Shown here: positions 1-55,949 of the stretch, piece after piece
How the letters are laid out: every line of letters begins with the position of its first letter
Numbering within the stretch: the first letter of the stretch is position 1
Source of the DNA: Escherichia coli
GTDB taxonomy: Bacteria; Pseudomonadota; Gammaproteobacteria; Enterobacterales; Enterobacteriaceae
DNA length: 64,000 nt
NCBI RefSeq assembly: GCF_024502345.1
Contig: NZ_JALDNN010000001.1
Strand: one strand, 5' to 3'
Program-made: the position numbers and the translations under genes
The notes under the pieces: generated by a model
Database searches by the model: none
What the model saw: the letters and a program-made list of their open reading frames with translations, nothing else
What the model was told of the DNA's origin: nothing

Positions 1-1595
<1,595 letters not shown>

Positions 1596-2462: not shown

Positions 2463-2479
2463 CATCTTCTCCTGCATAT

Positions 2480-3424
2480 TCAGTTCTCTGTTCTGGCGCT
2501 TAACGAGCCAAATCCGGCAATCCACTCCGGGATTGGGCGGTAATAACGCCCTTCGCTACGCCAGTTGCCAAATGCAGAAATAGCGGCAAAAGCGGCGACC
2601 CAGGTTTTGATTTCATGTGTCGACTTTCCGGCAATGGCGGAAAGCTCTTCGTTACTGACGGCATCCAGTTCCTGTATGCGTCCCTGCTCCAGCAAAGTCA
2701 TGAACTGGTTATCCCAAATCGGGTTGAGCGGATGCAGAGTTCTCTGATCCTCAACAAACTTCTCAGCGGCGCTAATCACCCGTTGCTGACGCAATTCGCG
2801 CTCACTGGCGGGTAAATCTTTCCCGCTCCCCAACAGGCGGTCGCGCATATGGGCATCGGCTTTCGCCAGTTCGGGCACCGGCGGCTGATGGGAAAGCCCA
2901 CCGGAACCCAGGAACAGCACGCGTTTATTGAGAGTGCTGGTGAAACGTCCAATGGCTTCACCCAACATGCGGGTACGCTGGAAACCGGGCAGCGGCGTGG
3001 CGACACCGTTGATGAACACAGGCAGAACTGGCACCTTATCCAGCCCACCGAGCAGGAACTCCAGCGGCTGGGCGAACCCGTGGTCCACCTGCATACAGTA
3101 AGAAACGGCAAGATCGATCCCGCTCTTCATGACGGCATGCGCACAGGCCTCCGCCAGCTCCACAGGCACTGGCAGCTCTCCTGCCGCACTGCCGAAATCA
3201 CCAATTGCCGTCGCTCCAACGCCTAAACAGAACGGTGGCATCACGTCATAGAAAAAGCCGTTGTAGTGATCTGGCGCAAACAGCACCACCAGTTCAGGGG
3301 AGAAAGCCGCAATACGCTCGCGGGCGCTGGCAATCACGCCATTGACCTCATCGAGTACCTCTTGTGCTGGGTCGACATACCCCACCAGCGGCGAGTGGGA
3401 AAGACAATGAAGATAAGCGTGCAT
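2480..3424 (-). CDS. mhpB: 3-(2,3-dihydroxyphenyl)propionate 1,2-dioxygenase MhpB
   Basis: ORF 314 aa [21 protein letters not shown]...; extradiol dioxygenase; operon position between mhpA and mhpC. Confidence 0.9.
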
Positions 3425-3425
3425 A

Positions 3426-5090
3426 TCAGGCTACCTTTTCGACAGAAACGTCGGCATCAGGGCGGGTCAGCGTCATCACCGACGCCAGTTTATTCAGGGT
3501 CTTGCCCAGGGTTTGCGGAATGGCGGTGGCGGCAACAAAGCGATCCGGGCGCATCACCACCAGCGAAGCATTGTGTTGCGCGAACCAGCTACGCAGACGA
3601 CATTGCGTATCCCCCACGCGTAGTACGCCGTCGTGGTTATCCTGTGCGGTATGAATTTGCACTTCCGGCACCACCTGAATGAAGCGTGTGCCCAACGCGC
3701 GCCACTGCTGGATTTGCTCGTCGCTCATCCCCCATAGTGGATTGCATCCCCAGCCAATTACTGCGAAGTTCGCGCCAATCGCGTTATCGAGCAGCGTCAC
3801 GTCGCCGTTTTCCAGCGTGACTTTCGGCTGAATAAACATCTTGCCGACCGGAGAGTGCTTCGCTTCGCCCTCTCGCACCAGCGCACCGCCGTAATATTGC
3901 GGCATCGGCTTGAAGCGCATTTCGAGGAAGTAGCGTTTTACTGGCGGCAGATAATTCAGCAGCCAGGAAACGCCGTCACGTAACGTACCCTGCCAGCGTT
4001 TCGGCGGAGCCAGCACGTTGCCCGCCGTCACGGACAGGTCAATCATCGCTTTGGCGTGATCGCGACGTTCTTGTTGATAGGTATCGAGCAGCGCATCGCG
4101 GGCTTTCCCCTGGATAACCAACGCCAGTTTCCATGCGAGGTTAAAGGCGTCGCGCATGCCACTGTTATAGCCCTGCCCCTGCCATACCGGCATGATGTGT
4201 GCGGCATCGCCCGCCAGCAGTACGCGATCAATACGGAAACGTTGCGCCAGTCGCGCGTTGTGGGTGTAGACACGCTGGCGAATCAATTCAACATTGTCCG
4301 GATTAGGCAGCACTTTGCTTAACAGCTTGCGCATATTTTGCGGCTCACGCAGCTGTTCTTCGGTTTCTCCTGGCATCACCATAAATTCAAAGCGACGTAC
4401 CGCATGAGGTAGCGCGGCAGAAACATACGGGCGCACCGGATCGCAACACAAATAGATATGCGGCGTACTTAACGGATCGTTGGCGATATCTACCACAATC
4501 CACTGATTTGGCGCAGTTTTACCTTCAAACGGCACATTCAGAGTGCGACGGACAAAACTTGCTCCACCGTCACAGGCTACCAGCCACTGGGCTTTGACCG
4601 TTTCCCGCTGCCCTTCTGCCGTTTTCAGGTGCAAGGTCACTTCGTCATTTTGCTGGCTGAAGGCCTCCAGCTCGCGGGCAAACAAGCAGCGCACATTCGG
4701 AAAACGCGACAACCCTTCCAGCATCACCGCATCGACCTGAGGCTGAATAAAGGCGTTACGGCGCGGCCAGCCAAATTCATCGGTCATTGGCTGAATATCA
4801 GCAAAACAGCGGCCTTTCGGGGTGAGAAAACGCATCGCGTGCCACGGTGTAGTGTGCGGCAGAACATTATCGACCAGGCCAACCGACTGCATGGTGCGCA
4901 GCGCCTCGTCATCAATACCTATCGCACGCGGGTAGTCGATCAACTTATCGAGTTTCTCCACCACCAGCACGTCAATGCCCATCTGACCGAGATAGTTCGC
5001 CATCATCAGCCCGACCGGACCGGCACCAGCGATCGCCACCTGAACGCTATGGTTAACAGCAGGCTGGATGTCAGGGTGTTGTATTGCCAT
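3426..5090 (-). CDS. mhpA: 3-(3-hydroxyphenyl)propionate hydroxylase MhpA (FAD monooxygenase)
   Basis: ORF 554 aa with N-terminal FAD fold [29 protein letters not shown]; stop abuts mhpB start. Confidence 0.9.
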
Positions 5091-36515: not shown

Positions 36516-39838
<3,323 letters not shown>

Positions 39839-40935: not shown

Positions 40936-41217
40936 ATGAAAGCGCACCTACAGGTGATTTTCACGCTCGATGAATTGGCTGCGTACTTGAAAGTCGGCAA
41001 GCGGACGCTTTATCGGCTCGCCGCACACGGGGAAATTCCGGCTTTCAAGGTGGGCGGGACGTGGCGGCTTCGTCAAAGTGAAATCGATCAGTGCATCAAT
41101 GATCAGACCCGAGCCGGAGCAAAGAAGGAGGTGATGCGCAAGCGTGAACAGCAGAAGTCATCCGAGCAGCCCGTGTCGCCTGGGCGCACTGCCCGTCGCA
41201 GCAGGCAAAGGGCTTGA
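40936..41217 (+). CDS. small HTH DNA-binding protein (excisionase/MerR-like), tLST orf1
   Basis: ORF 40882..41217; start placed at MKAHLQVIFTLDELAAYLKVGKRTLYRLAAHGEIPAFKVGGTWRLRQSEIDQ (HTH_17-like) preceded by ggagaggg. Confidence 0.6.
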   Translation: MKAHLQVIFTLDELAAYLKVGKRTLYRLAAHGEIPAFKVGGTWRLRQSEIDQCINDQTRAGAKKEVMRKREQQKSSEQPVSPGRTARRSRQRA

Positions 41218-41251
41218 GTAACTCGTTTTCCAATTTTTCTGGAGGTATGAC

Positions 41252-41821
41252 ATGGACATCGATTTCAAGAAGTTGGCTCCCTGGAACTGGTTCAAGAACG
41301 AGCAGCAAGAGCAGCAGACCGCCTCTTCCCTGCCGGTGCAGCGCAATGACCTGCCAGCGGCGAGCGGGCCAGTCAGCCCGATCCTGCAACTGCGTCGGGA
41401 AATCGACCGGCTGTTCGATGACGCATTCCGGGGCTTCGGTTTTCCGGCGTTGAACATGCCGCAGTGGCCATCCGATTGGTCGGGCATGCTGAAGCCGGCC
41501 CTGGACATCCAGGAAACCGACAAGCAGTACAAGATTGCCCTGGAAGTGCCCGGTGTCGAGGAGAAGGACATCCAGATCACCCTCGACAACGACGTGCTGA
41601 TGGTGCGTGGCGAGAAGCGCCAGGAACAGGAGAAGAAGGAAGGTGGCTTCCACCGTGTGGAGCGCTCCTACGGCAGCTTTCAGCGTGCCTTGAACCTGCC
41701 TGACGACGCCAACCAGGATTCGATCAAGGCATCGTTCAAGAACGGGGTGCTCACGGTCACGATCGACAAGCGCGAGGTCAGCGCGCCGAAGCAGGGACGC
41801 TCGATCCCGATCAACGGCTGA
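41252..41821 (+). CDS. small heat-shock protein (Hsp20/alpha-crystallin family)
   Basis: 189-aa ORF with alpha-crystallin domain ...DIQETDKQYKIALEVPGVEEKDIQITLDNDVLMVRGEKRQEQEKKEGGFHRVERSYGSFQRALNLPDDANQDSIKASFKNGVLTVTI. Confidence 0.85.
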   Translation: MDIDFKKLAPWNWFKNEQQEQQTASSLPVQRNDLPAASGPVSPILQLRREIDRLFDDAFRGFGFPALNMPQWPSDWSGMLKPALDIQETDKQYKIALEVPGVEEKDIQITLDNDVLMVRGEKRQEQEKKEGGFHRVERSYGSFQRALNLPDDANQDSIKASFKNGVLTVTIDKREVSAPKQGRSIPING

Positions 41822-41926
41822 CGTCGCCGGCTCGTTCGTCACAAGAAAAACCCGTCCCGAGACGAGGTGTCGCGGCTCGCGATGCCTCGTCGCCTCAACC
41901 TTTTCAACCTTCTAAGGAGCATCAGC

Positions 41927-44809
41927 ATGGCCAGAAAACAATGCCAGGTCTGCGGCCAACCCGCCACCGTGCGGGTGGAAGCCAATCTCAACGGTCGTCA
42001 CAGCACCATGCTGTTGTGCGACGACCATTACCGGCAATTAGTGCGCCAGCAAAAGCGCACCGTTTCGCCGCTGGAAGCCTTGTTCGGTTCGCGCAGCGGC
42101 CTGTTCGAGGACTTCCTCGGCAGTGACTTCTTCCGCATCGGCGACGACGCGACGCCAGTTGCCGCCGATACCGATGACGTGGTCGATGCCTCGTTTGGCG
42201 AGCCCGCCGCCGCAGGTTCGGGTGCGCCGCGCCGTCGCGGCAGTGGGCTGGCCAGCCGCATCAGCGAACAGTCGGAAGCCTTGTTGCAGGAGGCCGCCAA
42301 ACACGCTGCCGAATTTGGCCGCTCCGAGGTGGATACCGAACATCTGCTGCTGGCGCTGGCCGACAGCGACGTGGTCAAGACCATCCTGGGTCAGTTCAAG
42401 ATCAAGGTCGATGACCTCAAGCGGCAGATCGAGTCTGAGGCCAAGCGCGGGGACAAGCCCTTCGAGGGCGAGATCGGCGTGTCGCCGCGCGTGAAGGATG
42501 CGCTCAGCCGCGCCTTCGTGGCCTCCAATGAACTCGGTCATTCTTATGTCGGTCCAGAGCATTTCCTGATTGGTCTGGCCGAGGAAGGCGAAGGGCTGGC
42601 CGCCAACCTGCTGCGCCGCTACGGCCTGACGCCGCAGGCGCTGCGCCAACAGGTCAGCAAGGTGGTCGGCAAGGGCGCCGAGGATGGACGCGCTGAGACG
42701 CCGACCAACACGCCCGAGCTGGATAAATACTCGCGCGACCTCACCAAGATGGCGCGCGACGGCAAGCTCGACCCGGTGATCGGCCGCGCGCAGGAGATCG
42801 AAACCACCATCGAGGTGCTGGCCCGGCGCAAGAAGAACAACCCGGTGCTGATCGGCGAGCCGGGTGTGGGCAAGACCGCCATCGTCGAAGGGCTGGCGCA
42901 GCGCATGGTGGCGGGTGAAGTGCCCGAGACCTTGCGCGACAAGCGCCTGGTGGAACTCAACATCAACGCCATGGTGGCCGGCGCCAAATATCGCGGCGAG
43001 TTCGAGGAGCGCGTGCAGAAGGTGCTGAAGGAGGTGACCGAGCACCAGGGCGAGCTGATTTTGTTCATCGACGAGGTGCACACCATCGTCGGTGCCGGCC
43101 AGGGCGGTGGCGAAGGCGGGCTGGACGTGGCCAACGTATTCAAACCGATGATGGCGCGCGGTGAACTCAACCTGATCGGCGCCACGACGCTGAACGAGTA
43201 CCAGAAATACATCGAGAAGGATGCCGCACTGGAGCGGCGCTTCCAGCCGGTGACGGTGCCCGAGCCGACGGTGGCCCAGACCATCATGATTCTGCGCGGC
43301 CTGCGCGACACCTTCGAGGCGCACCACAAGGTCAGCATCTCCGAGGACGCGATCATCGCGGCGGCCGAGTTGTCCGACCGCTACATCACGGCGCGCTTCC
43401 TGCCGGACAAGGCGATCGACCTGCTCGACCAGGCGGCCGCGCGCGTGAAGCTGTCGGCCACGGCCCGGCCGGTGGCCGTGCAGGAGCTGGAGTCCGAACT
43501 GCACCAGCTGCGGCGTGAACAGGATTACGTGGCCGCGCGCAAGCAGTACGACCAGGCCGCCGAGCTCGGCAAGCGCATCGAAGCCAAGGAGACCGAGCTC
43601 AAGAAGCTCGTCGAGAACTGGGAGCGGGAGCGGGCCTCCGGCAGTGCAGAGGTCAAGGCGGAACACGTGGCGCAGATCGTCTCGCGCCTGACCGGCATCC
43701 CTGTCAACGAGTTGACGGTGGAAGAGCGCGAAAAGCTGCTGCACTTGGAACAACGGCTGCACGAGCGCCTGGTGGGACAAGACGAGGCGGTCCGTGCCGT
43801 GGCCGATGCCGTGCGGCTGTCCCGCGCCGGCCTGCGCGAAGGCAGCAAACCGGTGGCTACCTTCCTGTTTCTGGGCCCGACCGGGGTGGGCAAGACCGAG
43901 CTCGCCAAGGCATTGGCCGAATCGATCTACGGCGATGAGCACGCCCTGTTGCGCATCGACATGTCGGAATATGGCGAACGCCATACCGTGGCGCGGCTGG
44001 TGGGCGCGCCTCCGGGCTATGTCGGTTACGACGAAGGCGGTCAGCTCACCGAGAAGGTGCGGCGCAAGCCCTACAGCGTGCTGCTGCTCGACGAGATCGA
44101 GAAGGCACACCCTGACGTCTACAACATCCTGCTGCAAGTGTTCGACGACGGTCGCCTCACCGACGGCAAGGGCCGGGTGGTGGATTTCACCAACACCATC
44201 ATCATCGCCACGTCCAACCTGGGTTCGGACATCATCCAGCGACGGCTGAAGGCGCGTGGGGCGGCCGACGAGGAGTACGAAAAGACCAAGGCCGAGGTCA
44301 TGGACGTGCTGCGCGGCCACTTCCGGCCCGAGTTCCTCAACCGCATCGACGAGATCATCGTCTTCCATGCGCTGGGTAAGGAGGAGATCCGCCACATCGT
44401 CGGCCTGCAGCTCGATCGCGTGGCGCGCAGCGCCGCCAGCCAGGGCGTGACGCTCACTTTCGATCAGACGCTGATCGACCATTTCGCGGAAGAAGGCTAC
44501 AAACCCGAGTTCGGTGCGCGTGAACTCAAGCGCCTGATCCGCAGCGAGCTGGAAACTGCGCTGGCGCGCGAGATGCTCGGTGGCGGCATCGGCAAGGGCG
44601 ATCACGCCAGCGCACGCTGGGACGACAAGGCCGAACGCGTGGTGTTCGAACGCAAAGAGCCACTGCAGACCCCGGCCGAGCCGGAGCAGCCGGATGCCGC
44701 GAAGGCGACCGAGCCGGAGCAGCCGGATGCCGCGAAGGCGACCGAGACGCCGCACGGCGACGCTGGCAAAGGCTCGCGCAAGAAGAAGTCGGCGAGCGAC
44801 GCATCTTGA
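41927..44809 (+). CDS. clpK: ClpK/ClpG-type stand-alone AAA+ disaggregase (two AAA domains, N-terminal zinc-binding extension)
   Basis: ORF 41867..44809; start at [15 protein letters not shown] after aaggag; Walker A GEPGVGKT / Walker [10 protein letters not shown] (AAA1), GPTGVGKT / [11 protein letters not shown] (AAA2); ClpB-like M-domain. Confidence 0.9.
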
Positions 44810-45060
44810 TGGCGGGCGAGGCTGCCGTGTCCGACCCCAAGGGCCTGGCATGGGCAGCCTCCCTGGCCTCGATCGCGGTGGCGTTCGTGGCCGCGGGTCA
44901 CGCGGTCGTCTACAAGCGTGATCCGCGGTCGACCACGCCGTGGGGGCTGCTCATCAGCGGCGGCACTGCCCTCCCGCTCGCTGGCCATCCGTTTGCGTGA
45001 CGGTGCGGCCCGTCTGTTCACCTGATCCTCTGGCAACTCGACTTTCGAGGAACACAGCCC

Positions 45061-46788
45061 ATGGAAAAAAAGAATCAATGGAATACCGGCTACTGGATCG
45101 TTGCCCTCCTGCTGTTGTTGAGTTTGCAGAGCTACTGGCAGACGGCGAAAACCGTCGAGCCGGTGCCCTACAGCGAGTTCGAGAAGGCGCTGGCCGAGGG
45201 GCGCGTGGCCGAAGTGCTGGTGTCGGATCGTACGGTGACCGGGCGCCTGAAGTCGCCGGACAGCCGGGGCAAGACGACGATCGTGGCAACGAGGGTCGAA
45301 CCCGATCTTGCCGATCGCCTGTCGAAGTACGACGTGCCCTATGCCCGCGTGTTGGAGAGCACCTGGCTGCGCGATGTGCTGTCGTGGATCCTGCCAGCGG
45401 TAGCCTTCTTTGGCGTCTGGTTCTTCCTGTTCCGCCGCTTCGCCGAGAAGCAGGGCATGGGCGGGTTTCTCAACATCGGTAAGAGCCGCGCCAAGGTGTT
45501 CGTGGAAAAGAACACCGGTGTGACGTTCGCCGATGTCGCGGGGGGGGATGAGGCCAAGGCGGAGCTGGTCGAGATCGTCGATTTCCTGAAGAATCCGCAG
45601 GACTATGGCCGTCTCGGGGCGCGCATTCCCAAGGGCGTGTTGCTGGTCGGCCCACCGGGCACCGGCAAGACATTGCTGGCCAAGGCTGTTGTCGGCGAGG
45701 CGGCGGTGCCCTTCTTCTCCATCTCCGGATCAGAGTTTGTCGAGATGTTCGTCGGCGTGGGTGCGGGCCGCACGCGCGGCGTCGGCGGCCACGACGAGAG
45801 CGAGCAGACCCTCAACCAACTGCTCACGGAGATGGACGGCTTCGACAGCTCGGTCGGGCTGATCATCCTCGCCGCCACCAACCGCCCCGAAATCCTCGAC
45901 CAGGCTCTGCTGCGTGCCGGCCGCTTCGACCGCCAGGTGCTGGTGGACCGGCCCGACAAGAAGGGGCGGCTGGACATCCTGAAGGTTCATGTCAAGAAGG
46001 TGACGCTGGCCCAGGATGTAGACCTCGAACAGGTAGCAGCACTGACCACGGGCTTTTCCGGCGCGGACCTCGCCAATAGGGTCAACAAGGCGGCGCTGGC
46101 GGCGAGGAGACGCCGTGCGTCCGCCGTGGAATTGCAGGACTTCACCGCGACCATCGAGCGCATCGTGGCGGGCCTGGAAAAGAAGAGCCGCGTGCTCAAT
46201 CCCAAGGAGCGGGAAACCGTGGCCCATCACGAGATGGGCCATGCGCTGGTGGCGCTGGCGCTGCCCGAAACCGACCCCGTACACAAGATCTCGATCATCC
46301 CGCGCGGCATCGGCGCGCTGGGCTACACCTTGCAGCGCCCCACCGAAGACCGCTTCCTGATGACGCGTACCGATCTCGAGCACAAGATCGCCGTACTGCT
46401 GGGCGGGCGTGCCGCCGAAAAGCTGGTGTTCGGCGAGTTGTCTACCGGGGCGGCGGACGATCTGGCGCGAGCCACCGACATCGCCCGCGACATGATCACC
46501 CGCTTTGGCATGGACGAGGGCCTGGGCTACATCGCCTTCGAGGCGCAGCGGCCCCGCTTTCTCGATACACCGGAACTGGCCCACGGCGGTTGCCGGGTGG
46601 CCGAATCGACCCAGGCGCGCATCGATCAGGCTATCCGCGACATCGTGATGGGCGTGTTCGAGCGCGCCTACCGGATTCTCGACATCTACCGCGCGGTGCT
46701 GGAGCGCTGCGCGCGCGAGCTGCTGGCGCGGGAAGCGCTCGACGAAAGCGATATCCGTCAATTGACTCAAGGACTTGTTCGGAACTGA
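45061..46788 (+). CDS. ftsH: FtsH-family membrane AAA+ zinc metalloprotease (island copy); apparent in-frame gap removing Walker B
   Basis: 575-aa ORF; two N-terminal TM segments, Walker [34 protein letters not shown], zinc site HEMGHAL; only GRTRGVG between GVGA and GHDE. Confidence 0.8.
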
Positions 46789-46875
46789 AAACAGTAGTAG
46801 GTGCCATTCAGAGTAAACCGACGGCTCTGTTCAGTGCGTCATCCAATTCGTCGGCATTGTTCAAGGAGAACCGAT

Positions 46876-47334
46876 ATGTCTGCATTGACTCCGTGGGACC
46901 CCTTCCGGGAACTGGATGAATTGCAAAACCGCCTGGCGACGATGTTCGGACGAATACCCCAGCGACAGGGCGCCCGTACCGGCAACGAAGCCATGACCAC
47001 GGCGGACTGGGCACCAATGGCGGACATCAGCGAGGATGAGAACGCATTCCTCCTCAAGCTGGATCTGCCGGAGGTCCCCAAGGATGCCGTGCGCGTCAGC
47101 GCGGAAAACGGTGTGCTCACCATCAGCGGCGAGCGCAAACTGGAAAAAGAGGAGCAGGGCAAGAAGTTCCACCGCATCGAACGTGCGTATGGCCGCTTTG
47201 TGCGCAGCTTTGTCTTGCCTGACAACGTTGATCCGACCAAGGTGACGGCTTCCATGAAAGACGGCGTACTGGAAGTGCGGCTTGTCAAGGCCGAGCAAGC
47301 CAAACCGAAACAGATTGAAATCTCAGTCAACTAA
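46876..47334 (+). CDS. small heat-shock protein (Hsp20 family), second copy
   Basis: ORF 46801..47334; start placed at MSALTPWDPFRELDELQNRLATMF after aaggag; alpha-crystallin core ...FLLKLDLPEVPKDAVRVSAENGVLTISGERK... Confidence 0.85.
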   Translation: MSALTPWDPFRELDELQNRLATMFGRIPQRQGARTGNEAMTTADWAPMADISEDENAFLLKLDLPEVPKDAVRVSAENGVLTISGERKLEKEEQGKKFHRIERAYGRFVRSFVLPDNVDPTKVTASMKDGVLEVRLVKAEQAKPKQIEISVN

Positions 47335-47356
47335 CTTCAATCAGGAGCCCAAGATC

Positions 47357-48271
47357 ATGAATATCAAACAGCCACAATACACCTTCTCCGCACTTGCCCT
47401 GGCGGTCGTCGTCGGACTGAGCGGACCGGCTCTGGCCCAATCGGCGGCAGGTTCTAGCCCAGGTGCTGCAGCCCCCTCTGCCGCATCCAAGGCGGCACAG
47501 CCACAAGTAGATGACAAGGCCGCCCGGGAAGCCGATAAAAAGCGTGCCGAGCTCACTCAAGACGCCATCACGGCGCTCACCAAGACCCAGGAGGCTTTGA
47601 CCCTCCTTGATGCAAAGAAGACCAAGGAGGCGCTTGCTGCGCTGGAACTGGCCAGCGGAAAGCTGGAACTGGTATTGGCACGTGACGCCAAACTTGCTTT
47701 GGCGCCGGTCGATGTACGCGTCATCACCCACGATATCCACGCCAACGTGGAATCGGTAAAGAAAGCGGTCAAGTTGTCTCGGGAGTTGTTGGGTGATGGC
47801 GAGGTGCAAAAGGCCCGGCCCATCGTTGCCAATCTGGCCAGCGAAATCGTAATCCAAACCGACAACCTTCCGATGGCAACGTACCCGGCAGCGATCAAGT
47901 CGGCCGCACGGCTCATCGACAGCGGCAAGATCGACAACGCCAAAGCGGAACTCGCCCGAGCACTGAACACGCTGGTGGTGACCTCGGTCGCCTTTCCTCT
48001 GCCCGTGCTACGGGCCGAAGCCGCGATGGCAAAAGCTGAAAAGCTGGCCGAGACCGACAGGCGCGATGCCAAGCAGAACGAGGAGCTCAGCACCTTGCTG
48101 TCGTCCGTGCGCACGGAGATCGAGATGGCGCAGATCCTGGGTTATGGCAAGAAGGCGGACTTCAAACCCATTTTCGATCAGGTGAAGTCCATTGAGCAAA
48201 AGTCGGCTGGTGGCAAAAGCGGCAAGGGATGGTTCGACGAGTTGAAGACGCGCATCCAAAAGCTGTTTTGA
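47357..48271 (+). CDS. yfdX: YfdX-family periplasmic protein (tLST YfdX1-like)
   Basis: ORF 47282..48271; start at MNIKQPQYTFSALALAVVVGLSGPALAQ (signal peptide); Ala/Lys-rich helical protein; position in tLST order. Confidence 0.65.
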   Translation: MNIKQPQYTFSALALAVVVGLSGPALAQSAAGSSPGAAAPSAASKAAQPQVDDKAAREADKKRAELTQDAITALTKTQEALTLLDAKKTKEALAALELASGKLELVLARDAKLALAPVDVRVITHDIHANVESVKKAVKLSRELLGDGEVQKARPIVANLASEIVIQTDNLPMATYPAAIKSAARLIDSGKIDNAKAELARALNTLVVTSVAFPLPVLRAEAAMAKAEKLAETDRRDAKQNEELSTLLSSVRTEIEMAQILGYGKKADFKPIFDQVKSIEQKSAGGKSGKGWFDELKTRIQKLF

Positions 48272-48373
48272 GGTGATGAAGGGGCTGACTGCTCTGTCGG
48301 TCAGTCTCGCGATGTTCGCATTCAGCCCCAACAGATTCGCCTATTTTCACTATCTCATACGAGGCATATCACC

Positions 48374-49261
48374 ATGAATGAGCAAACACCGAATCCCAAT
48401 GCGACGAACGAAGGAATAAACGAACAAGCCGCGGTAAGCAGCCTTCCTGTCAGTCCAGAGTCCAAGCCTGAAGTCGTCACGGAGGTACAGCCTGAGGTTC
48501 AGAAAGAAACGGACTCGCAGGCGGCAGACAAACGTAAACAAGTCCTCGATGAGGCAGTCTCGGCCTTGTCGCTGACCAAATCAGCGCTGGCCGCACTTGA
48601 CGGCAAGGACACTGCACGCGCATTGGCAACGCTGGCCGAAGTGACGGGAAAGCTGGAGCTGATCGTCGCGCGCGAACCCACGCTCGCCCTGGCCGGCGTT
48701 GATGTGCGCACCATCGTGCACGACTTGTTCGCCAACACGGAAACCATTGAGGCGATGACCGACGAGGCGCTGGATGCCCTCAAACATGGCGAGGTGCAAC
48801 AGGCTCGCCACGTGCTGGCTTTGCTGGCCAGTGAAATCGTGATCACGGTCACCAACATCCCTTTGGCGTCCTATCCCGCAGCCGTGAAGGCAGTCGTGCC
48901 GCTGATCGATCAGGGCAAGATCGAAGAAGCCAAAGCCGCGCTGCAGTCAGCGCTCAGCACGCTGGTCGAGGAGCGCAGCGTGCTTCCGCTGCCCGTCCTG
49001 CGTGCGAAGCTGCTCCTGAAGCGCGCCGAGCCTCTGGTAGAAGATGGTCAGCGCAGCGAAGCATCCAATGAGCGCCTGGAGACATTGTTGAACGAAGCCC
49101 GGCAGCAGTTGGAAATGGCAGAACTGCTGGGCTATGGAAAAAGGAAGGACTTTGAGCCCCTGTACGCTGAACTCAAGAAAATCAAGGAAAAGACGGGAGG
49201 GGGAGGCTTCGGAAAAGGCTGGCTCGATGAAGTCAAGGCAAAACTGTCCAGGTTGTTCTGA
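48374..49261 (+). CDS. yfdX: YfdX-family protein paralogue (tLST YfdX2-like); no obvious signal peptide
   Basis: 295-aa ORF sharing C-terminal motifs with the preceding gene (…LPLPVLRA…AEKLAE…ILGYGKK.DF.P…KGW.DE.K..…LF). Confidence 0.6.
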   Translation: MNEQTPNPNATNEGINEQAAVSSLPVSPESKPEVVTEVQPEVQKETDSQAADKRKQVLDEAVSALSLTKSALAALDGKDTARALATLAEVTGKLELIVAREPTLALAGVDVRTIVHDLFANTETIEAMTDEALDALKHGEVQQARHVLALLASEIVITVTNIPLASYPAAVKAVVPLIDQGKIEEAKAALQSALSTLVEERSVLPLPVLRAKLLLKRAEPLVEDGQRSEASNERLETLLNEARQQLEMAELLGYGKRKDFEPLYAELKKIKEKTGGGGFGKGWLDEVKAKLSRLF

Positions 49262-49270
49262 AACCGCTGG

Positions 49271-49295
49271 AGAGGGGGCGCATAGTGCCCCCTCT
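49271..49295 (+). terminator. GC-rich hairpin downstream of yfdX2 (possible intrinsic terminator; U-tract not immediately adjacent)
   Basis: agagggggc-gcatagt-gccccctct perfect 9-bp stem, followed ~20 nt later by tttgattttttattttg. Confidence 0.35.
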
Positions 49296-49350
49296 CTTGT
49301 CCCATGAGTGTTTGATTTTTTATTTTGTATAGATCTTTAGGAGATATTGC

Positions 49351-49962
49351 ATGAACACAGACACCATCACCGATTCCAGTGCGGATGACCCCACCAAAGC
49401 ACTGTGTTCGCTTAGCCAAAATTGGTGGCTTTTTGTGCTGCGCGGTGTCTTGGCATTGATTTTTGCAGCCCTCGCGTTCTGGATGCCACAATCGGCTCTG
49501 TTGGCCATGACCATCATGTTCGGCGCATTTTCCTTGGTCAATGGCGCGTTCAACTTGTTTGCAGCGGTGCGCCATATCCAGAAAAAAGAGCGCTGGGGCT
49601 GGTTGTTGTTCAGCGGCATTGTCGGCATACTTACGGGCGTCGTCGTCCTGGTTGCTCCTTGGGTCGCCACGATAGTCTTGGCTTCTTTTTTATGGGCTAG
49701 CGTGGGCTTCTGGGCGATTTTCACCGGTGTGCTGGAGATATCTGCCGCCGTTCGGCTGCGTCGGGAAATCAAGGGTGAAATCTGGCTTGCCCTCAGTGGA
49801 CTGCTCTCGATTATCCTTGGTGCTATCGTCTTGTGGATATTTTTTACCCGTCCGGTCGAGTCATTCGTGGCCGCAGGCTGGCTGTTGGGTTTCCATGCGG
49901 CAGTCTATGGCGTCACGCTTTTGTTCTTGAGTTGGAGTCTTCGCAAAACGCGCCTGGGGTAA
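49351..49962 (+). CDS. hdeD: HdeD-family acid-resistance membrane protein
   Basis: 203-aa ORF with ~6 hydrophobic segments (…WWLFVLRGVLALIFAALAFWMPQSALLAMTIMFGAFSLVNGAFNLFAAV…); tLST order. Confidence 0.75.
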   Translation: MNTDTITDSSADDPTKALCSLSQNWWLFVLRGVLALIFAALAFWMPQSALLAMTIMFGAFSLVNGAFNLFAAVRHIQKKERWGWLLFSGIVGILTGVVVLVAPWVATIVLASFLWASVGFWAIFTGVLEISAAVRLRREIKGEIWLALSGLLSIILGAIVLWIFFTRPVESFVAAGWLLGFHAAVYGVTLLFLSWSLRKTRLG

Positions 49963-50041
49963 GAGCGTGCCAAACCAAAATCTATGGATATGAGCATCCT
50001 CGATTCATGCCTCCATAGAAATGACATCGAAGGAGTCATAC

Positions 50042-51187
50042 ATGCAGATACAATATAGCTATCGAGCTATCGACAAAGAGTTTCATGAACCTTGGCAGAG
50101 AGCTTTGGGAAATGTGATCGAGCACGCCCTCAAGCCATTGCTCGACAAACACACTAAAGATTCAGCGCGACTTCAAATCGTCCTTGATCGCGACAAGATC
50201 AAGCGGCAATTTCTGGCCAGTGGCTATATGCACCTGCCCGGCAAAAAGATTGTCAGCGTTACTGCATCACATGACGAGCTGACGCCCCTCGCGCAGATGC
50301 TCGCACAGTCGTTGTTCCGTCAGGCCAAGAAGCATTTTGACCGACTGCATGCTCAGGATCAAATCAAGCGCAAAGCACGACGCGAGCGCTTGCGCGAGCT
50401 CAAGGTGCGGATTGCCGCAAAACCCGCATCAGCCGCCCATGAGGCCGAGGTGACCCGAATGCCTCTACTGTCGAAACTTGAGGCTGTCGCAAGGCGTGAG
50501 CTGGCTTATCTGCGGGCCGTCGGCGATTTACCGCGCGATTATCCGACGCTGCGCGACGTGGTGGATGAAGCGATTGTCCGAGCTAAGGTGGAATGGCAAT
50601 CCGTGCCGGGGGAAAAAGAGGCTTACACCGGTCTTTTGAAGCATCTGTTCGCCGTCCTGGATAACGAAGTGGCAAGCAGCCGGCAATTTGGCGAATTCGT
50701 TTCTCTGGACGCGCCGGTCGAACCGGATGCCCAAGACGTGGCCGAGGCCATGGTGGAAGAGGAAATCTTCGAATTTTATCAGCACGATGACACACTCAAG
50801 CTGGCCGATATTTTCGCTGGCAGTCAGCATCCCGATGTCGCAACGATCGCGGAACAGGAGGAGCTGATTGATCGGTCGAGCGAGTTCGCTTTTGCATTTG
50901 ACCTGCTGAAGGACATGCCGCGTTTGTGGCGGCGCATTTTTCTGCTTATCCGTGTGGACGGGCTGAATGCCAGCAGCGTCTCTGAAATCCTGCTGATTCC
51001 TAGTAAGGAAGATGCTGTCCAAAGGTGGCTCATGCAGGCCGAAGCATTCATCGCTGCTCATCTGGAAGAGGCCGGAGTAAGCAAAAACGGGAACGATTGG
51101 CTCCAAGGCGTTGATTGGCCGGCATTGTCTGTGACCCGAAGCGAGGCAGCCTCACTGTGGTCCAAGGAGGCGAACCATGAAGAATGA
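50042..51187 (+). CDS. hypothetical protein (tLST orf11); C-terminal segment resembles sigma-70 region 4 HTH
   Basis: ORF 50021..51187; ATG at 50042 preceded by aggag; C-terminal LKDMPRLWRRIFLLIRVDGLNASSVSEILLIPSKEDAVQRWLMQAEAFIAAHL. Confidence 0.5.
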   Translation: MQIQYSYRAIDKEFHEPWQRALGNVIEHALKPLLDKHTKDSARLQIVLDRDKIKRQFLASGYMHLPGKKIVSVTASHDELTPLAQMLAQSLFRQAKKHFDRLHAQDQIKRKARRERLRELKVRIAAKPASAAHEAEVTRMPLLSKLEAVARRELAYLRAVGDLPRDYPTLRDVVDEAIVRAKVEWQSVPGEKEAYTGLLKHLFAVLDNEVASSRQFGEFVSLDAPVEPDAQDVAEAMVEEEIFEFYQHDDTLKLADIFAGSQHPDVATIAEQEELIDRSSEFAFAFDLLKDMPRLWRRIFLLIRVDGLNASSVSEILLIPSKEDAVQRWLMQAEAFIAAHLEEAGVSKNGNDWLQGVDWPALSVTRSEAASLWSKEANHEE

Positions 51188-51617
51188 TCTTCACCTCGTC
51201 TGCCCGCATTGCCAGTCCATCAACCGCGTACCGACTGCGAAGCTATCGGAACATCCCAACTGTGGCCGCTGCCAGCAGCCCTTGTTCACGGGCGAGCCCA
51301 TCGAGTTGACCACGGCGACGTTCTCGCGCCACGTGGAGCGCAGCGATCTGCCGCTGCTGGTCGATTTCTGGGCGCCATGGTGCGGGCCGTGCAAGATGAT
51401 GGCGCCACAGTTCCAGCAAGCGGCGCACCAGCTCGAACCGACGATCCGGCTGGCGAAGGTGAATACCGAGGCTGAGCCCCACCTGGCCGCGCAGTTCGGT
51501 ATCCGCAGCATCCCGACGCTCGCCCTGTTCCAGGGTGGGCGGGAGATCGCCCGTCAGGCCGGCGTGATGGGCGCGCAGGACATCGTGCGCTGGACGTCGA
51601 CGCAAGTGGGACGCTGA
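51177..51617 (+). CDS. thioredoxin with N-terminal zinc-finger extension (Trx2-like)
   Basis: 146-aa ORF: CPHCQSINRV...CGRCQQPLF zinc ribbon and active site WAPWCGPCKMMAP. Confidence 0.85.
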   Translation: MKNDLHLVCPHCQSINRVPTAKLSEHPNCGRCQQPLFTGEPIELTTATFSRHVERSDLPLLVDFWAPWCGPCKMMAPQFQQAAHQLEPTIRLAKVNTEAEPHLAAQFGIRSIPTLALFQGGREIARQAGVMGAQDIVRWTSTQVGR

Positions 51618-51620
51618 CCG

Positions 51621-53336
51621 ATGCAGGGCTTGCTCGGCACTACGCTAATCCTGCTGGCGGCTTGCAGCCTGGCGGCGATGGCGACGGCGGCGTTCAGAGT
51701 GCCCGCCTTGCTGGGGTATCTCTCTGTCGGCGTTGTACTGGGCCCCTCAGTCATCGGCGTGATCGCGCCGGGGGAGACGCTGAGCTTTCTGTCCGAGCTG
51801 GGCGTGGCGCTGCTGTTGTTCATGGTCGGACTGGAATTCTCCCTCGGAGACTTCTGGCTCGCCCGCAGGACGGTGCTGATGGCGGGCGCTCTGCAGATGA
51901 TCGCCGTGGCCCCGCCGCTGATCCTGCTATTGATGTGGCTGGGGCAGCCCGGCCAGAGCGCCGCGCTGCTCGGCACTGCGGCGGCCATGTCGTCCACGGC
52001 GCTGGTCAGCCGACAACTGGCCGACCAAGGCGAGCTCACCACCCGCCACGGACGCAGTGCCATCGCCGTGCTGGTCTTTCAGGACCTGGCCAGCGTGCCC
52101 CTGCTGGCCTTGCTGGCGATCTGGGCGCGCGGCGACTCGCCGAAGATCGAGCATGTGCTGCTCGAAGTATTCGGTGTGCTGCTGCTGTTCGCGGCAGCGG
52201 CCCTCGCCTCGCGCCGTCTGTTGCATGGCCTGCTGGGCTGGGTGGCGCGGCGGGGCCACGAGGAATCGTTCGTGCTCGTCTCCTTGTGCGTGGTGGTGGC
52301 CGCCGCCGCCGCTGCGCACGCGGTCGGCGTATCTGCCGCCCTGGGGGCCTTCCTCGCCGGGATGGTGCTGGGCGAGAGCGACTTCCGGCACCACATGGAA
52401 AGCCACCTCAGGCCGTTTCGCGATGTGTTGTCGGGCGTGTTCTTCGTGACCATCGGCCTGCAACTGGACGCAGCACAGATTCTTTCGGCACCGCTGGCGG
52501 TGCTGGCGTGGCTGGTGGTGCTGGTACCGGTCAAGATCCTGCTCAATACACTGGCCTTGCGGGCGACGCGCCTGTCCGCCCTCGATGCCTGGCGCACGGG
52601 CATAGCGTTGGGGCACGGCGGCGAGTTCGCCCTGCTGTTGTTGGGCACGGTCTTGCAGCAGCATCTGATCCCCGCGACCGTCGTCCAACCCATGCTGGTC
52701 GCGCTGGTGCTCAGCATGGCCCTGGCACCGCTACTGATCCGCCATCACGATGTACTTGCCCGGTTCTTGAGCCGCACCGGCGGCGTCATTCAGCCACCCC
52801 AGGCTGAAGAAGTCGAGATCGCCGCGCAGACGACGCGATATCGAGACCATGTCATCATTTGCGGCGCGGGCGAGCTTGGCCTGACAGTCAGCGAGATTCT
52901 TCGCCACGCCGGCGTGGCGCATCTGCTGCTGGAGGCGGACGCGCAGAAGGTCGAGGCCGCGCGTGCCGCCGGCGCGCCGGTGTTCCATGCCGATGCCAGT
53001 CGGCCCGATACCTTGCTGGCTGCCGGCTTGACGCATGCACACTTGGTGGTGCTGACGTTCGCCCATGCCCAGCAAGCGTTGCGCATCGCCCAGGCGATTG
53101 CCGAGCACCGTCCGGCGCTGACCTTGTGGGTGTCATGCAGAAGTACGACCGCGGCCGATGCATTTCGCGCCATGCCCAACGTGCGCGTGTATCAGCAATC
53201 CTTTGCCGCAGCTATTGGGCTGGCGGAACAGGTGATGTCGACGCTTGGCATGTCGACCGAGCTGATTGAAGGACACATCAGCGCAATGCGCCGCCGTCTC
53301 GACAGCAGCCGTTTTCCAGGGAGTTCATCGTCATGA
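51621..53336 (+). CDS. kefB: KefB-like monovalent cation:proton antiporter-2 (CPA2) with C-terminal TrkA-N/RCK domain
   Basis: 571-aa ORF; 12-13 TM segments then Rossmann-type VIICGAGELG... regulatory domain. Confidence 0.8.
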   Translation: MQGLLGTTLILLAACSLAAMATAAFRVPALLGYLSVGVVLGPSVIGVIAPGETLSFLSELGVALLLFMVGLEFSLGDFWLARRTVLMAGALQMIAVAPPLILLLMWLGQPGQSAALLGTAAAMSSTALVSRQLADQGELTTRHGRSAIAVLVFQDLASVPLLALLAIWARGDSPKIEHVLLEVFGVLLLFAAAALASRRLLHGLLGWVARRGHEESFVLVSLCVVVAAAAAAHAVGVSAALGAFLAGMVLGESDFRHHMESHLRPFRDVLSGVFFVTIGLQLDAAQILSAPLAVLAWLVVLVPVKILLNTLALRATRLSALDAWRTGIALGHGGEFALLLLGTVLQQHLIPATVVQPMLVALVLSMALAPLLIRHHDVLARFLSRTGGVIQPPQAEEVEIAAQTTRYRDHVIICGAGELGLTVSEILRHAGVAHLLLEADAQKVEAARAAGAPVFHADASRPDTLLAAGLTHAHLVVLTFAHAQQALRIAQAIAEHRPALTLWVSCRSTTAADAFRAMPNVRVYQQSFAAAIGLAEQVMSTLGMSTELIEGHISAMRRRLDSSRFPGSSSS

Positions 53337-53830
53337 AATCAACACGCCTTAACCCATTTCAGGTCTTACGTGACCAATTGGCCATCATGAGTTTTTACGA
53401 GCGCTTCGAGCAGGTCGTCGCGCTCGTGCTGTCGGCGGTGATCGCCGTCATCATCGTGGTGTCGCTGTTCCAGCTCATCTCCATCGTCTTCACGCTGCTG
53501 GTTCTAGATGCCTTCAATCCCCTGGACCACGAGGTATTCCAGAGCGTGTTCGGCATGATCATGACGCTCTTGATCGCGATGGAGTTCAAGCATTCCATCG
53601 TGCGCGTGGCGCTGCGTCGGGACAGCATCATCCAGGTCAAGACGGTGGTCCTGATCGCGCTGATCGCACTCTCCCGCAAGTTCGTGATCCTCGACTCCAA
53701 CGCGAGCCCCGCAAAGATAGCCGCGCTGGCTAGCGCCACGCTGGCTCTGGGTGCGACCTACTGGCTGCTGCGCAAGCGCGGCGACCGCGCCGCCGAGACC
53801 TCTGAGCATGACCCGTCATCATCCCAGTGA
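53333..53830 (+). CDS. psiE: PsiE-family inner-membrane protein
   Basis: 165-aa ORF, four hydrophobic segments; position in tLST order; overlaps upstream and downstream genes. Confidence 0.6.
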   Translation: MKSTRLNPFQVLRDQLAIMSFYERFEQVVALVLSAVIAVIIVVSLFQLISIVFTLLVLDAFNPLDHEVFQSVFGMIMTLLIAMEFKHSIVRVALRRDSIIQVKTVVLIALIALSRKFVILDSNASPAKIAALASATLALGATYWLLRKRGDRAAETSEHDPSSSQ

Positions 53831-54773
53831 TCCGCGCACGGCGCTCTTGCAACACCGCTGGCTCAACCGCCTGCAGACCGGGCTGTTGGTCCTGACCCTG
53901 GTCGGGATCGCAGCCGCAGCAGGGAGACTGCCGTTTGGGGAAGGCTGCCTGTGGCTCGCGCTGTTTGCCATTGCAGGTGCGTTGCTGCTGGAACCGGTAG
54001 CCGCGTCGGCGCTGAGCTTGCGCCTGTACCGCGTACGGGCCTTGCACCCGCAAGAAGCCCACAAGATGTGGGCCCTATTGCGCGAGCTGCCCGCCCGTGC
54101 CGGTTTGCCCGCCACGCCGGTGCCGCACTATGTGCCCAGTGCCGTCGTCAACGCCTTCGCCACCGGATCGAAGCAGGAGGCATCGATCGCCCTCACCGAT
54201 GGCCTGCTGCGCAGCCTGAGCCCACGCGAGCTGGCGGGTGTGCTCGTGCACGAGGTCGCGCACATCGCTAATGAGGATCTGCGTGTCATGGGGCTGGCGG
54301 ATTCCGACAGTCGCCTCACGAGCCTACTGGCCCTTATGGGACAGATCGCGATCCAGCTCAGCCTGCCCGCGCAGCTGGTTGGCGCGGCGGAGGTCTATTG
54401 GCCTGGTCTATTGTTATTGGCCGCATCGCCCCAGCTGGCCCTGCTCGCACAGCTCGGCTTGTCTCGCGTGCGTGAGTTCGACGCTGACCGCCTTGCGGCG
54501 GAACTGACTGGCGACCCGCAGGGGCTGGCGTCCGTGCTGGCAAAAATCGAGCGGGTCAGCCGCTCCTGGCGTGCCTGGCTATGGCCGGGATGGGGCAATC
54601 CCGAGCACTCCTGCTTGCGTACGCGTCCGGCAACGCAAGAGCGCATTGCACGCCTGCTGACGTTGGCGCCTGGGCCAGCATCAGCGTTGCCACTCCGCGC
54701 GCCCCATTTTTTGCCGGAATCCGCTTTGGCGACGCGCCCACCGAGCTGGCGCCCGAGCGGGCTGTGGCGCTGA
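53808..54773 (+). CDS. M48-family zinc metalloprotease (HtpX-like)
   Basis: ORF 53751..54773; start placed at MTRHHPSDPRTALLQHRWLNRL; HExxH motif VLVHEVAHIANEDL; N-terminal TM segments. Confidence 0.75.
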   Translation: MTRHHPSDPRTALLQHRWLNRLQTGLLVLTLVGIAAAAGRLPFGEGCLWLALFAIAGALLLEPVAASALSLRLYRVRALHPQEAHKMWALLRELPARAGLPATPVPHYVPSAVVNAFATGSKQEASIALTDGLLRSLSPRELAGVLVHEVAHIANEDLRVMGLADSDSRLTSLLALMGQIAIQLSLPAQLVGAAEVYWPGLLLLAASPQLALLAQLGLSRVREFDADRLAAELTGDPQGLASVLAKIERVSRSWRAWLWPGWGNPEHSCLRTRPATQERIARLLTLAPGPASALPLRAPHFLPESALATRPPSWRPSGLWR

Positions 54774-54797
54774 TTGCCCATCAACAGGAGACGTCTC

Positions 54798-55949
54798 ATG
54801 GCCTATCTCGACCCGTACCAACGCCCCGCGCCGGACCGCTTCGTCCGGCGCGGGCTCTTCATCACCGCCTGCATTGCCGCGCTCATGCTGCTGTGGCAGT
54901 TTCTGCCCGCCATCGAGGCATGGTTCAGTCCGCGCGAGGCAGCAGAACGCACCGTGATGGCGCGTGGCGATCTGGCGGCGGACGAGAAAACCACCATCGA
55001 ACTGTTCGAAAAATCGCGCGCCTCGGTGGTCTACATCACCACCGCGCAATTAGTACGCGATGTCTGGACGCGCAACGTGTTCTCCGTGCCGCGCGGCACT
55101 GGCTCGGGCTTCATCTGGGACGACGCCGGCCACGTCGTCACCAACTTCCACGTCATCCAGGGCGCGTCCGAAGCCACCGTCAAACTGGCCGACGGCCGCG
55201 ACTACCAGGCCGCGCTGGTGGGGATGAGCCCCGCGCACGACATCGCCGTGCTCAAGATCGGCGTCGGTTTCAAGCGCCCGCCGGCCGTGCCGGTCGGCAC
55301 CAGTGCCGACCTCAAGGTGGGTCAGAAGGTGTTCGCTATCGGCAACCCCTTCGGCCTGGACTGGACGCTCACCACAGGTATCGTCTCCGCGCTCGACCGC
55401 TCGTTGCCGGGAGAAGCGGGCGGCCCGGCCATCGATCACCTGATCCAGACCGACGCCGCCATCAACCCCGGCAATTCCGGTGGCCCGCTGCTCGATTCGG
55501 CTGGGCGGCTGATCGGAATCAATACCGCCATCTACAGTCCGTCTGGCGCCTCGGCCGGCATAGGCTTTGCGGTGCCGGTCGATACCGTCATGCGCGTGGT
55601 GCCGCAACTCATAAAGACCGGCAAGTACATCCGTCCGGCACTGGGCATCGAGGTGGATGAGCAGATCAACGCGCGTCTGCAGGCGCTGACCGGCAGTAAG
55701 GGCGTATTCGTATTGCGCGTGACGCCGGGCTCGGCGGCGCACAGGGCCGGGCTCGTCGGCGTCGAGGTCACCGCAGGCGGCATCGTGCCCGGCGATCGCG
55801 TTATCAGCATCGACGGTATCGCCGTCGACGACGTCACCACATTACAGGCCCGGCTAGACGACAAGAACGTTGGAGATGTTGTGGTCTTGTTAGTGGAGCG
55901 GGCCGGCAAGACTCGCGAGATGCTTGTGGAACTACAACCGGGAGTTTGA
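54798..55949 (+). CDS. degP: DegP/HtrA-family periplasmic serine protease with single PDZ domain
   Basis: ORF 54774..55949; start at MAYLDPYQRP after aggag; catalytic H (TNFHVI), D (DIAVLKI), S (GNSGGPLL); C-terminal PDZ. Confidence 0.85.
   Translation: MAYLDPYQRPAPDRFVRRGLFITACIAALMLLWQFLPAIEAWFSPREAAERTVMARGDLAADEKTTIELFEKSRASVVYITTAQLVRDVWTRNVFSVPRGTGSGFIWDDAGHVVTNFHVIQGASEATVKLADGRDYQAALVGMSPAHDIAVLKIGVGFKRPPAVPVGTSADLKVGQKVFAIGNPFGLDWTLTTGIVSALDRSLPGEAGGPAIDHLIQTDAAINPGNSGGPLLDSAGRLIGINTAIYSPSGASAGIGFAVPVDTVMRVVPQLIKTGKYIRPALGIEVDEQINARLQALTGSKGVFVLRVTPGSAAHRAGLVGVEVTAGGIVPGDRVISIDGIAVDDVTTLQARLDDKNVGDVVVLLVERAGKTREMLVELQPGV

Follow-up and report, generated by a model that had tools for sequence, protein, structure and literature searches.

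In-frame loss of the Walker B segment from the island-borne FtsH of an Escherichia coli tLST1 island, and recurrent breakage of the same gene in related islands

In a 64,000-nucleotide (nt) stretch of Escherichia coli DNA (contig NZ_JALDNN010000001.1; this whole stretch is referred to as the window), we analyzed the FtsH gene of a tLST1-type island (also LHR1 or TLPQC-2), ftsH_GI, whose intact 575-amino-acid (aa) open reading frame (ORF) lacks the segment of the AAA domain that bears the Walker B motif. We consider it likely, at a probability of about 0.7, that the product is without ATPase activity and represents a relic, probably misfolded, of an FtsH acquired by horizontal transfer, which is drifting under relaxed constraint. 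This reading rests on repeated independent lesions of the gene, on relaxed selection, and on the published full heat resistance of tLST1 without a functional ftsH. The product would no longer be able to serve as an ATP-driven unfoldase-protease, and the allele would have drifted after the deletion and be breaking further in sublineages. The heat and chlorine resistance of the island comes from sHsp20, ClpK, sHsp-GI, YfdX1/2, HdeD-GI, and KefB, with no need for ftsH. That the ORF is still open would then be due to the deletions happening to be in frame and to the young age of the allele (at least 99.8% identical among carriers), and not to need.

Comparison of the short protein with E. coli FtsH (PDB 7vhp sequence) located the loss directly downstream of the pore-1 loop, at a scar that reads A235-GRTRGVG-G243 (Table 1). 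As the original prediction had it, only 7 residues are found between the GVGA and GHDE motifs compared to 36 in E. coli FtsH, which amounts to a gap of 29 aa relative to E. coli FtsH and of 30 aa relative to the full-length island FtsH (tLST2, 609 aa). Neither the Walker B pattern hhhhD[DE] nor its relaxed form hhhD[DE] had a match anywhere in the 575-aa protein, which rules out a substitute Walker B elsewhere in it. Alignment with the other tLST FtsH proteins agreed with this outcome, as the full-length tLST2 protein keeps IIFIDELD and no equivalent acidic motif occurs at another place in the window protein. The motif search also bore out the earlier statement that the frame is preserved and that Walker A, the second region of homology (SRH), and the HEMGH zinc site are intact in sequence, with the sensor-1 Asn and the SRH arginine fingers likewise present. 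In 38 of 38 distant homologues from many proteobacterial and other lineages (48-80% identity), as well as in the close full-length alleles, Walker B takes the form IIFIDE[LI]D or a near variant of it, and relative to all 40 relatives compared, the segment is deleted in the window protein. Since the distant homologues and the close full-length alleles alike retain the motif, its absence is a derived loss and not variation within the family. Among the GTDB contig matches listed, there were only distant full-length homologues, at no more than 87% identity. Against the TIGR01241 profile, the short FtsH scored 664.5 bits (cut-off 600) in two stretches, the second starting at profile position 268, compared to 779 bits in a single stretch for the full-length tLST2 FtsH.

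Upon aligning DNA and protein with two full-length references of 609 aa (tLST2) and 602 aa (a tLST1-type gene from Klebsiella), we found that the gap, while in frame and of the predicted 29 aa relative to E. coli FtsH, resolved into two deletions and not one. The first, of 78 nt, joins at ~45765/45766 and removes 26 aa, whereas the second, of 12 nt, lies within a TCGGCGGCC repeat at ~45782-45790 and removes the 4 aa GGPI. In the full-length alleles, the first deleted block is flanked by the imperfect direct repeats GGCCCGTGTGCGCG and GGGCCGCGCGCGCG, which lie 78 nt apart, and the second by the imperfect direct repeats GTCGGCGGCC and ATCGGCGGCC, which lie 12 nt apart. Short GC-rich direct repeats thus bound both blocks, as is characteristic of replication slippage or recombination at short homologies, and two such events between the imperfect repeats excised the 78 nt and the 12 nt in frame. 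When mapped onto the full-length AlphaFold model, the first block comprises helix α2 (235-247), strand β3 with the Walker B motif IIFIDELD (251-256), and the next turn, and the second block is part of the pore-2 loop. When the 18-nt junction GGCGTGGGTGCGGGCCGC was compared with metagenome contigs, all 120 of 120 matches were chance matches in GC-rich DNA, and none was an island ftsH.

The original prediction had also allowed for an assembly or alignment artefact. While a GC-rich repetitive region could in principle collapse, we found nothing in favor of this explanation, and we regard its probability for the window as negligible. In ~100 complete E. coli genome records, which stem from many laboratories and platforms, BLAST recovered the same 1728-nt allele in one piece at 99.8-100% identity. 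Its commonest variant, which the ECONIH4 record annotates as WP_000412528.1, occurs on at least 1000 contigs. Because the identical scar recurs across these complete genomes and contigs, it is not an assembly artefact. The exact window protein was found on 3 contigs, and its allele differs from the common one by three substitutions, all nonsynonymous (E343K, N543Y, and T559A).

To judge the structural consequence of the loss, we compared AlphaFold models of the short and the full-length FtsH that were built with the same 41-sequence alignment. The β3 strand is the central strand of the AAA+ nucleotide-binding sheet and bears both the Mg2+-coordinating aspartate and the catalytic glutamate. The predicted local distance difference test score (pLDDT) of the AAA α/β core was ~76-89 in the full-length protein compared to 28-48 over residues 223-298 of the short protein, with the sensor-1/SRH stretch at below 50 compared to ~76-79 in the full-length control, and strand β5 (321-324), which was formed in the full-length model, was missing from the short one. 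The N-terminal domain, the AAA small subdomain, and the M41 helices were modeled normally in the short protein. Its helices 9-31 and 102-130 flank a β-rich domain at a pLDDT of ~75-85, as in the full-length control, which fits the two N-terminal transmembrane helices around a periplasmic domain of an FtsH, and the helices of its M41 protease domain reached ~75-95. The models suggest that the short FtsH most probably cannot fold a normal AAA α/β core, and, given the loss of Walker B and of an ordered core in the model, both ATP-dependent proteolysis and hexamer formation are predicted to be absent.

The original prediction held that the protein would bind but not hydrolyze ATP, as a trap variant. 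Given the missing motif, loss of ATP hydrolysis can safely be inferred, but an ATP-bound trap does not follow from it. A classical trap is a point change of a Walker B acidic residue in an intact fold, and engineered Walker B point mutants such as the Glu-to-Gln trap retain ATP binding together with the fold and the aspartate that coordinates Mg. While hydrolysis is expected to be lost in such mutants and in the window FtsH alike, the latter is without the whole strand and the preceding helix, and because helix α2, the central strand β3, and part of the pore-2 loop were excised, the lesion is not equivalent to a point trap. A trap of normal fold, in which Walker A would bind ATP that is never hydrolyzed and substrates would be held, could draw on the presence of Walker A, the pore-1 loop, the SRH arginines, and HEMGH in the sequence. 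We nevertheless think it very improbable, as the deletion took the Mg2+-coordinating Walker B aspartate and not the catalytic glutamate alone, model confidence is lost for β4, the SRH, and β5, and conserved AAA positions were substituted after the deletion (A211V, R247S in the HDEREQ motif, L340R, and E343K).

Alignments of related alleles show that tLST1-type islands have lost Walker B in at least four independent events. The window-type allele (78 + 12 nt lost in frame, 575 aa) is found on at least 1000 contigs. The H6/14EC017-type allele (GAARVRGIGGHDE; 572 aa, ~198 contigs) involves the same two repeat pairs with other crossover points. The Raoultella/Klebsiella-type allele lost 105 nt in frame between GAGCAG repeats, joining ...VRDLFEQ to TLNQ... 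(570 aa, 2 contigs). The AW1.7 plasmid-type allele has an out-of-frame deletion, 901 bp as published, that leaves orf5 (228 aa) and orf6 (47 aa), and which we mapped to ~880 nt (nt 636-1515 on the window allele). The H6/14EC017 and Raoultella/Klebsiella alleles resemble the window allele in that the same α2-β3 segment was lost in frame at GC-rich repeats, with the ORF intact in some carriers, while they differ from it in breakpoints, allele backgrounds, and abundance. We considered whether recombination could have given the window-type and H6-type scars a single origin and rejected it, since the two scars differ at 5 of 18 nt, each scar state matches a different repeat copy, and the background of the H6/14EC017-type allele is EA7-like both upstream and downstream of the scar.

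The gene is broken at further places as well. A G8 homopolymer, which is in frame in the window, arose by a GTG-to-GGG change (V162G) that is common to all tLST1-type alleles, and it carries -1 frameshifts in EA7, E. roggenkampii pY546, and K. variicola, a +1 frameshift in the E. coli C group, and +2 frameshifts in 14EC017 and TUM14664. Among 39 sampled rows at 99% identity or above, 7 have a gene of 1729 nt and ~31 one of 1728 nt, although some of the differences in G-tract length could be long-read homopolymer errors. Close relatives show a 7-nt insertion, an 11-nt deletion, and in-frame changes of 9, 6, and 24 nt, and a third island type shows 3' truncations of ftsH. Of 269 plasmids with any island-ftsH match, 32 retain the scar-region part of the gene. 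A junction-specific search of 72,556 plasmids found the window-type scar on none of them and the Raoultella scar on a single one. An intact full-length ftsH is kept by tLST2 only.

Several minor observations concern the same gene. The Klebsiella plasmid tLST1-type allele, annotated as a functional FtsH, itself lacks 9 nt of helix α2 (RDLFEQ to CEL, at gene nt ~720) just upstream of its surviving Walker B, and EA7 and TUM14664 carry a 9-nt duplication at the same site. Helix α2 is thus a hot spot for indels also in alleles that keep Walker B. Near the 3' end of the window ftsH, at 46702-46739, lies a 15-nt GC-rich tandem repeat (GAGCGCTGCGCGCGC, 2.5 copies), and the ftsH of K. pneumoniae 6072 has a 24-nt in-frame insertion beside this position, which points to another slippage-prone site. 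An unannotated stretch of the Acinetobacter baumannii plasmid NZ_CP137056.1 matches the left flank of the ftsH scar region at 97.8% identity; tLST-type ftsH sequence is therefore also present on a plasmid outside the Enterobacteriaceae.

The density of independent inactivating lesions, which is very high for alleles only ~2% diverged, raises a question of cause that overlaps with our preferred reading, namely whether the lesions were favored or tolerated. An active foreign FtsH_GI might be harmful in Enterobacteriaceae, for example because it degrades σ32 or LpxC or mixes with the essential host FtsH, so that ATPase-killing lesions would have been positively selected, with Walker B deletions as the commonest solution and a present product that is functionless. 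The four or more Walker B removals would fit such selection, as would the loss of most of ftsH from most plasmid-borne islands and the lack of inactivating lesions in clpK (2.9 kb) and kefB (1.7 kb) of the same islands. However, many E. coli and Salmonella plasmids keep the intact 609-aa tLST2 ftsH, which shows that an active FtsH_GI is tolerated. Moreover, the G8 run and the GC-rich repeats at which the lesions fall are hot spots of mutation that raise the rate of neutral loss, and the htpX-like orf15 and orf11 also look relaxed or frameshifted with no toxicity argument to explain it. Selection for inactivation is, in our estimate, a tentative alternative with perhaps a minor share of the probability.

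We found constraint on ftsH to be relaxed after the deletion. Upon counting synonymous and nonsynonymous changes among six window-type E. coli islands, we obtained 7 synonymous and 11 nonsynonymous changes for ftsH (pN/pS 0.53), compared to 48 and 21 for the seven genes that are experimentally needed for heat/chlorine resistance (pN/pS 0.15; Fisher p = 0.027) and to 14 and 2 for clpK (p = 0.005). The corresponding counts were 13 and 5 for kefB, 4 and 1 for degP as well as for yfdX1, 3 and 9 for orf11, and 4 and 13 for the htpX-like orf15. Neutrality of ftsH was not rejected (p = 0.18), while a persistence of the long-term ω of ~0.08 (tLST1 vs tLST2 alleles) was rejected for the post-deletion gene (p = 1e-4). 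Hence, two marks of a gene relic, a lost catalytic element and relaxed constraint relative to its neighbors, are present, whereas a disrupted reading frame is absent from the window and most carriers and occurs in sublineages only. Given the nonsynonymous excess in orf11 and orf15, the latter of which bears a frameshift annotation in AR_0369 and STK77-E, two of the six strains, ftsH is apparently not the sole island gene under relaxed constraint.

A number of points weigh against a simple relic. The 575-aa ORF is intact in most carriers and lies, with a Shine-Dalgarno-like site, inside an operon; its pN/pS is 0.53 and not 1; in-frame events make up three of the four Walker B losses, above the chance expectation of 1/3, although the sample is tiny; and AlphaFold confidence is not a measurement of stability. 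By a curated parsimony count, from which alignment artefacts at codons 236-241 were removed by hand, of 13 nonsynonymous events that followed the deletion, none affects the N-terminal 140 codons (P = 0.027), 6 of the 13 fall in codons 205-255, within 25 codons of the scar (p = 5e-4), and codon 238 was changed twice in different sublineages (A238T and A238P). Small as the numbers are, selection of a residual or compensatory kind, acting on an expressed protein, could lie behind this pattern; alternatively, the cluster beside the scar could stem from local mutational bias in the GC-rich repeat region.

The intact ORF and translation signals, the pN/pS below 1, and the distribution of the substitutions would speak for a retained pseudo-enzyme, as the original prediction had in part envisaged, in which the Walker-B-less FtsH is made, inserted into the membrane via its intact N-terminal domain, and fulfills an ATP-independent role, for instance as a dead subunit that joins the host FtsH in one assembly and tunes the turnover of σ32 or LpxC, or as a holdase or scaffold with the M41 domain. 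Persistence of three independent in-frame Walker B excisions, on at least 1000, ~198, and 2 contigs, would be in line with this, and so would the hetero-oligomers that the full-length FtsH_GI forms with the core FtsH in P. aeruginosa (PMC6629908). We judge it unlikely all the same: neutrality of ftsH was not rejected, about one-fifth of the sampled window-type alleles are frameshifted at G8 and the H6-type allele has frameshifted derivatives too, AW1.7 is highly heat resistant without 901 bp of ftsH, the AAA core is modeled as disordered, and a dead subunit would presumably carry a cost by poisoning the FtsH that E. coli cannot do without. A residual modulatory role for the short FtsH is possible but unsupported, and in our view doubtful. 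More improbable still is that the repeated α2-β3 excision represents a selected conversion into an ATPase-dead subunit that co-assembles with the host FtsH and damps or retunes its activity (σ32 and LpxC turnover), in which case the membrane/periplasmic and M41 domains would have been kept for this end and the substitutions beside the scar, including those at codon 238, would be compensatory. Such a subunit would be a new regulatory trick, but nothing here requires it.

That the ftsH of tLST1 is defective and dispensable is already known. The ftsH_GI was described as truncated in tLST1 and functional in tLST2, while the two islands confer heat resistance to a comparable degree (Kamal 2021, PMC8290217), orf4-6 were termed "truncated and dysfunctional" and excluded from the functional gene set (PMC8407380), and truncated cls and FtsH ORFs were reported as conserved across TLPQC-2, with expression and function unknown (Nguyen 2017). 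The 901-bp ftsH deletion is found in AW1.7 (PMC5514686), which served as the reference strain for high heat resistance (Mercer 2015). The 575-aa form of FAM21845 was contrasted with this deletion as "FtsH", while its missing Walker B went unremarked (Marti 2017, PMC5514686). Further ftsH deletions among tLST variants were noted in a 2025 survey. In the searchable literature, from which subscription-only papers fell outside the search, we found no explicit statement of an in-frame Walker B excision in the common chromosomal allele, nor of a repeat-mediated mechanism, an independent recurrence, or a G8 hot spot in the tLST1 ftsH.

Among the known systems, the AW1.7 LHR/tLST1 island, in which ftsH (orf5 + orf6) has been regarded as truncated or dysfunctional (Mercer 2015; Nguyen 2017; Kamal 2021; Wang 2021), is of the same type and has the same gene at the same position between orf4 and sHsp20-GI. 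Its ftsH nt 1-635 are 99.7% identical to those of the window, Walker B is absent from both, and both genes are deemed not to contribute to heat resistance. The AW1.7 gene, however, suffered a single out-of-frame deletion that left a 228-aa N-terminal fragment and a 47-aa C-terminal ORF, whereas the window allele lost only 90 nt, in frame, and retains a 575-aa ORF with the whole protease domain. The FtsH_GI of tLST2 (LHR2) and the FtsH2 of the P. aeruginosa clone C tLSTa are orthologous to the window protein. Outside the gap, the tLST2 protein is 94% identical to it and shares its Walker A, MFVG, SRH, and HExxH as well as the two helices and the periplasmic domain of its N-terminus, but both full-length proteins retain α2-β3 with IIFIDELD, which the window protein is without. 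Full-length FtsH_GI has intact Walker A and B motifs and forms homo- and hetero-oligomers with the core FtsH, and FtsH2 of P. aeruginosa clone C is an active protease that backs up the core FtsH (Kamal 2019, PMC6629908).

The 575-aa ORF scores above the equivalog cut-off, and annotation pipelines and at least one paper treat it as an FtsH protease. As it lacks the element for ATP hydrolysis, it is not to be counted as a proteolytic component in the heat/chlorine resistance that tLST1 confers on food-borne and clinical E. coli. Overall, the allele series offers a small example of a horizontally acquired duplicate of an essential protease being dismantled in a new host, in which short GC-rich repeats and a homopolymer steer where the breaks fall.

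Table 1. Positions of the island, of ftsH_GI, and of related features in the window
Feature	Position	Strand	Basis
tLST1/LHR1/TLPQC-2 island core, helix-turn-helix (HTH) orf1 to degP-like orf16	40936..55949	+	gene-by-gene mapping, flank matches, GC
orf4, 63-aa N-terminal remnant of the island cardiolipin synthase	44809..45000	+	64% identity to first 50 aa of tLST2 cls product
Shine-Dalgarno-like GAGGA, 9 nt 5' of the ftsH ATG	45047..45051	+	sequence
ftsH_GI, short tLST1 allele, intact 575-aa ORF	45061..46788	+	ORF list, exact protein WP_060659165.1
G8 homopolymer, codons A160-G161-G162-D163, in frame	45540..45547	+	sequence
Walker A GPPGTGKT, aa 197-204, intact	45649..45672	+	motif search
Pore-1 loop MFVG, aa 229-232, intact, directly 5' of the scar	45745..45756	+	motif search
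Deletion scar A235-GRTRGVG-G243	45763..45789	+	DNA and protein alignment with full-length alleles
Sensor-1 and SRH, aa 273-291, sequence intact	45877..45933	+	motif search
HEMGH zinc site of the M41 protease domain, aa 390-394, intact	46228..46242	+	motif search
orf11	50042-51187		
htpX-like orf15	53808-54773		

The island is an insertion in the E. coli chromosome near mhp/prp/lac, as judged from matches of the flanking chromosome. Mapping against the annotated ECONIH4, K. pneumoniae, and tLST2 loci yielded the tLST1 gene order, orf1(HTH)-sHsp20-clpK-[cls remnant]-[defective ftsH]-sHsp20GI-yfdX1-yfdX2-hdeD-orf11-trx-kefB-psiE-htpX-like-degP, and, as in tLST1, a full cls, orfC/D, and a GGDEF gene are absent. 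All 15 of the 15 island genes match the annotated ECONIH4 island at 99.7% identity, and the GC content is 0.59-0.66 across most of 40-56 kb, except for 48-50 kb, where it falls to 0.56. Strains with near-identical islands are known to resist extreme heat and chlorine (PMC4563881, PMC8407380, and PMC5514686). Within the island, ftsH_GI sits between the cls remnant orf4 and sHsp20-GI, and it is 99.8% identical to an allele annotated as "ATP-dependent metallopeptidase FtsH/Yme1/Tma family protein" in ~100 E. coli genomes. Its translation signals are kept. Between clpK and sHsp20-GI, we found no promoter-like site and terminator-like sites at chance level only, and hence no convincing internal promoter or terminator that would uncouple ftsH from the operon.

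The neighboring orf4 is a second decayed gene of the ftsH segment, with a frame that is still open and a sequence identical in the window and ECONIH4; it was entered as "Phospholipase", 63 aa, in an earlier gene list (Mercer 2015 Table S1). At the 3' end of clpK (44676-44746), a perfect 33-nt tandem duplication of 2.2 copies encodes a repeated 11-residue unit at the ClpK C-terminus, and as clpK is 2883 nt long in the window and some strains and 2850 nt in others, the repeat number is polymorphic. To the left of the island (window ~37739-38333, compared to 1036-3900 of the ECONIH4 locus), IS3 and integrase remnants are common to both, while the window flank is without the group II intron (ltrA) and the extra IS copies found in ECONIH4. 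The mobile-element content beside the island thus varies between strains.

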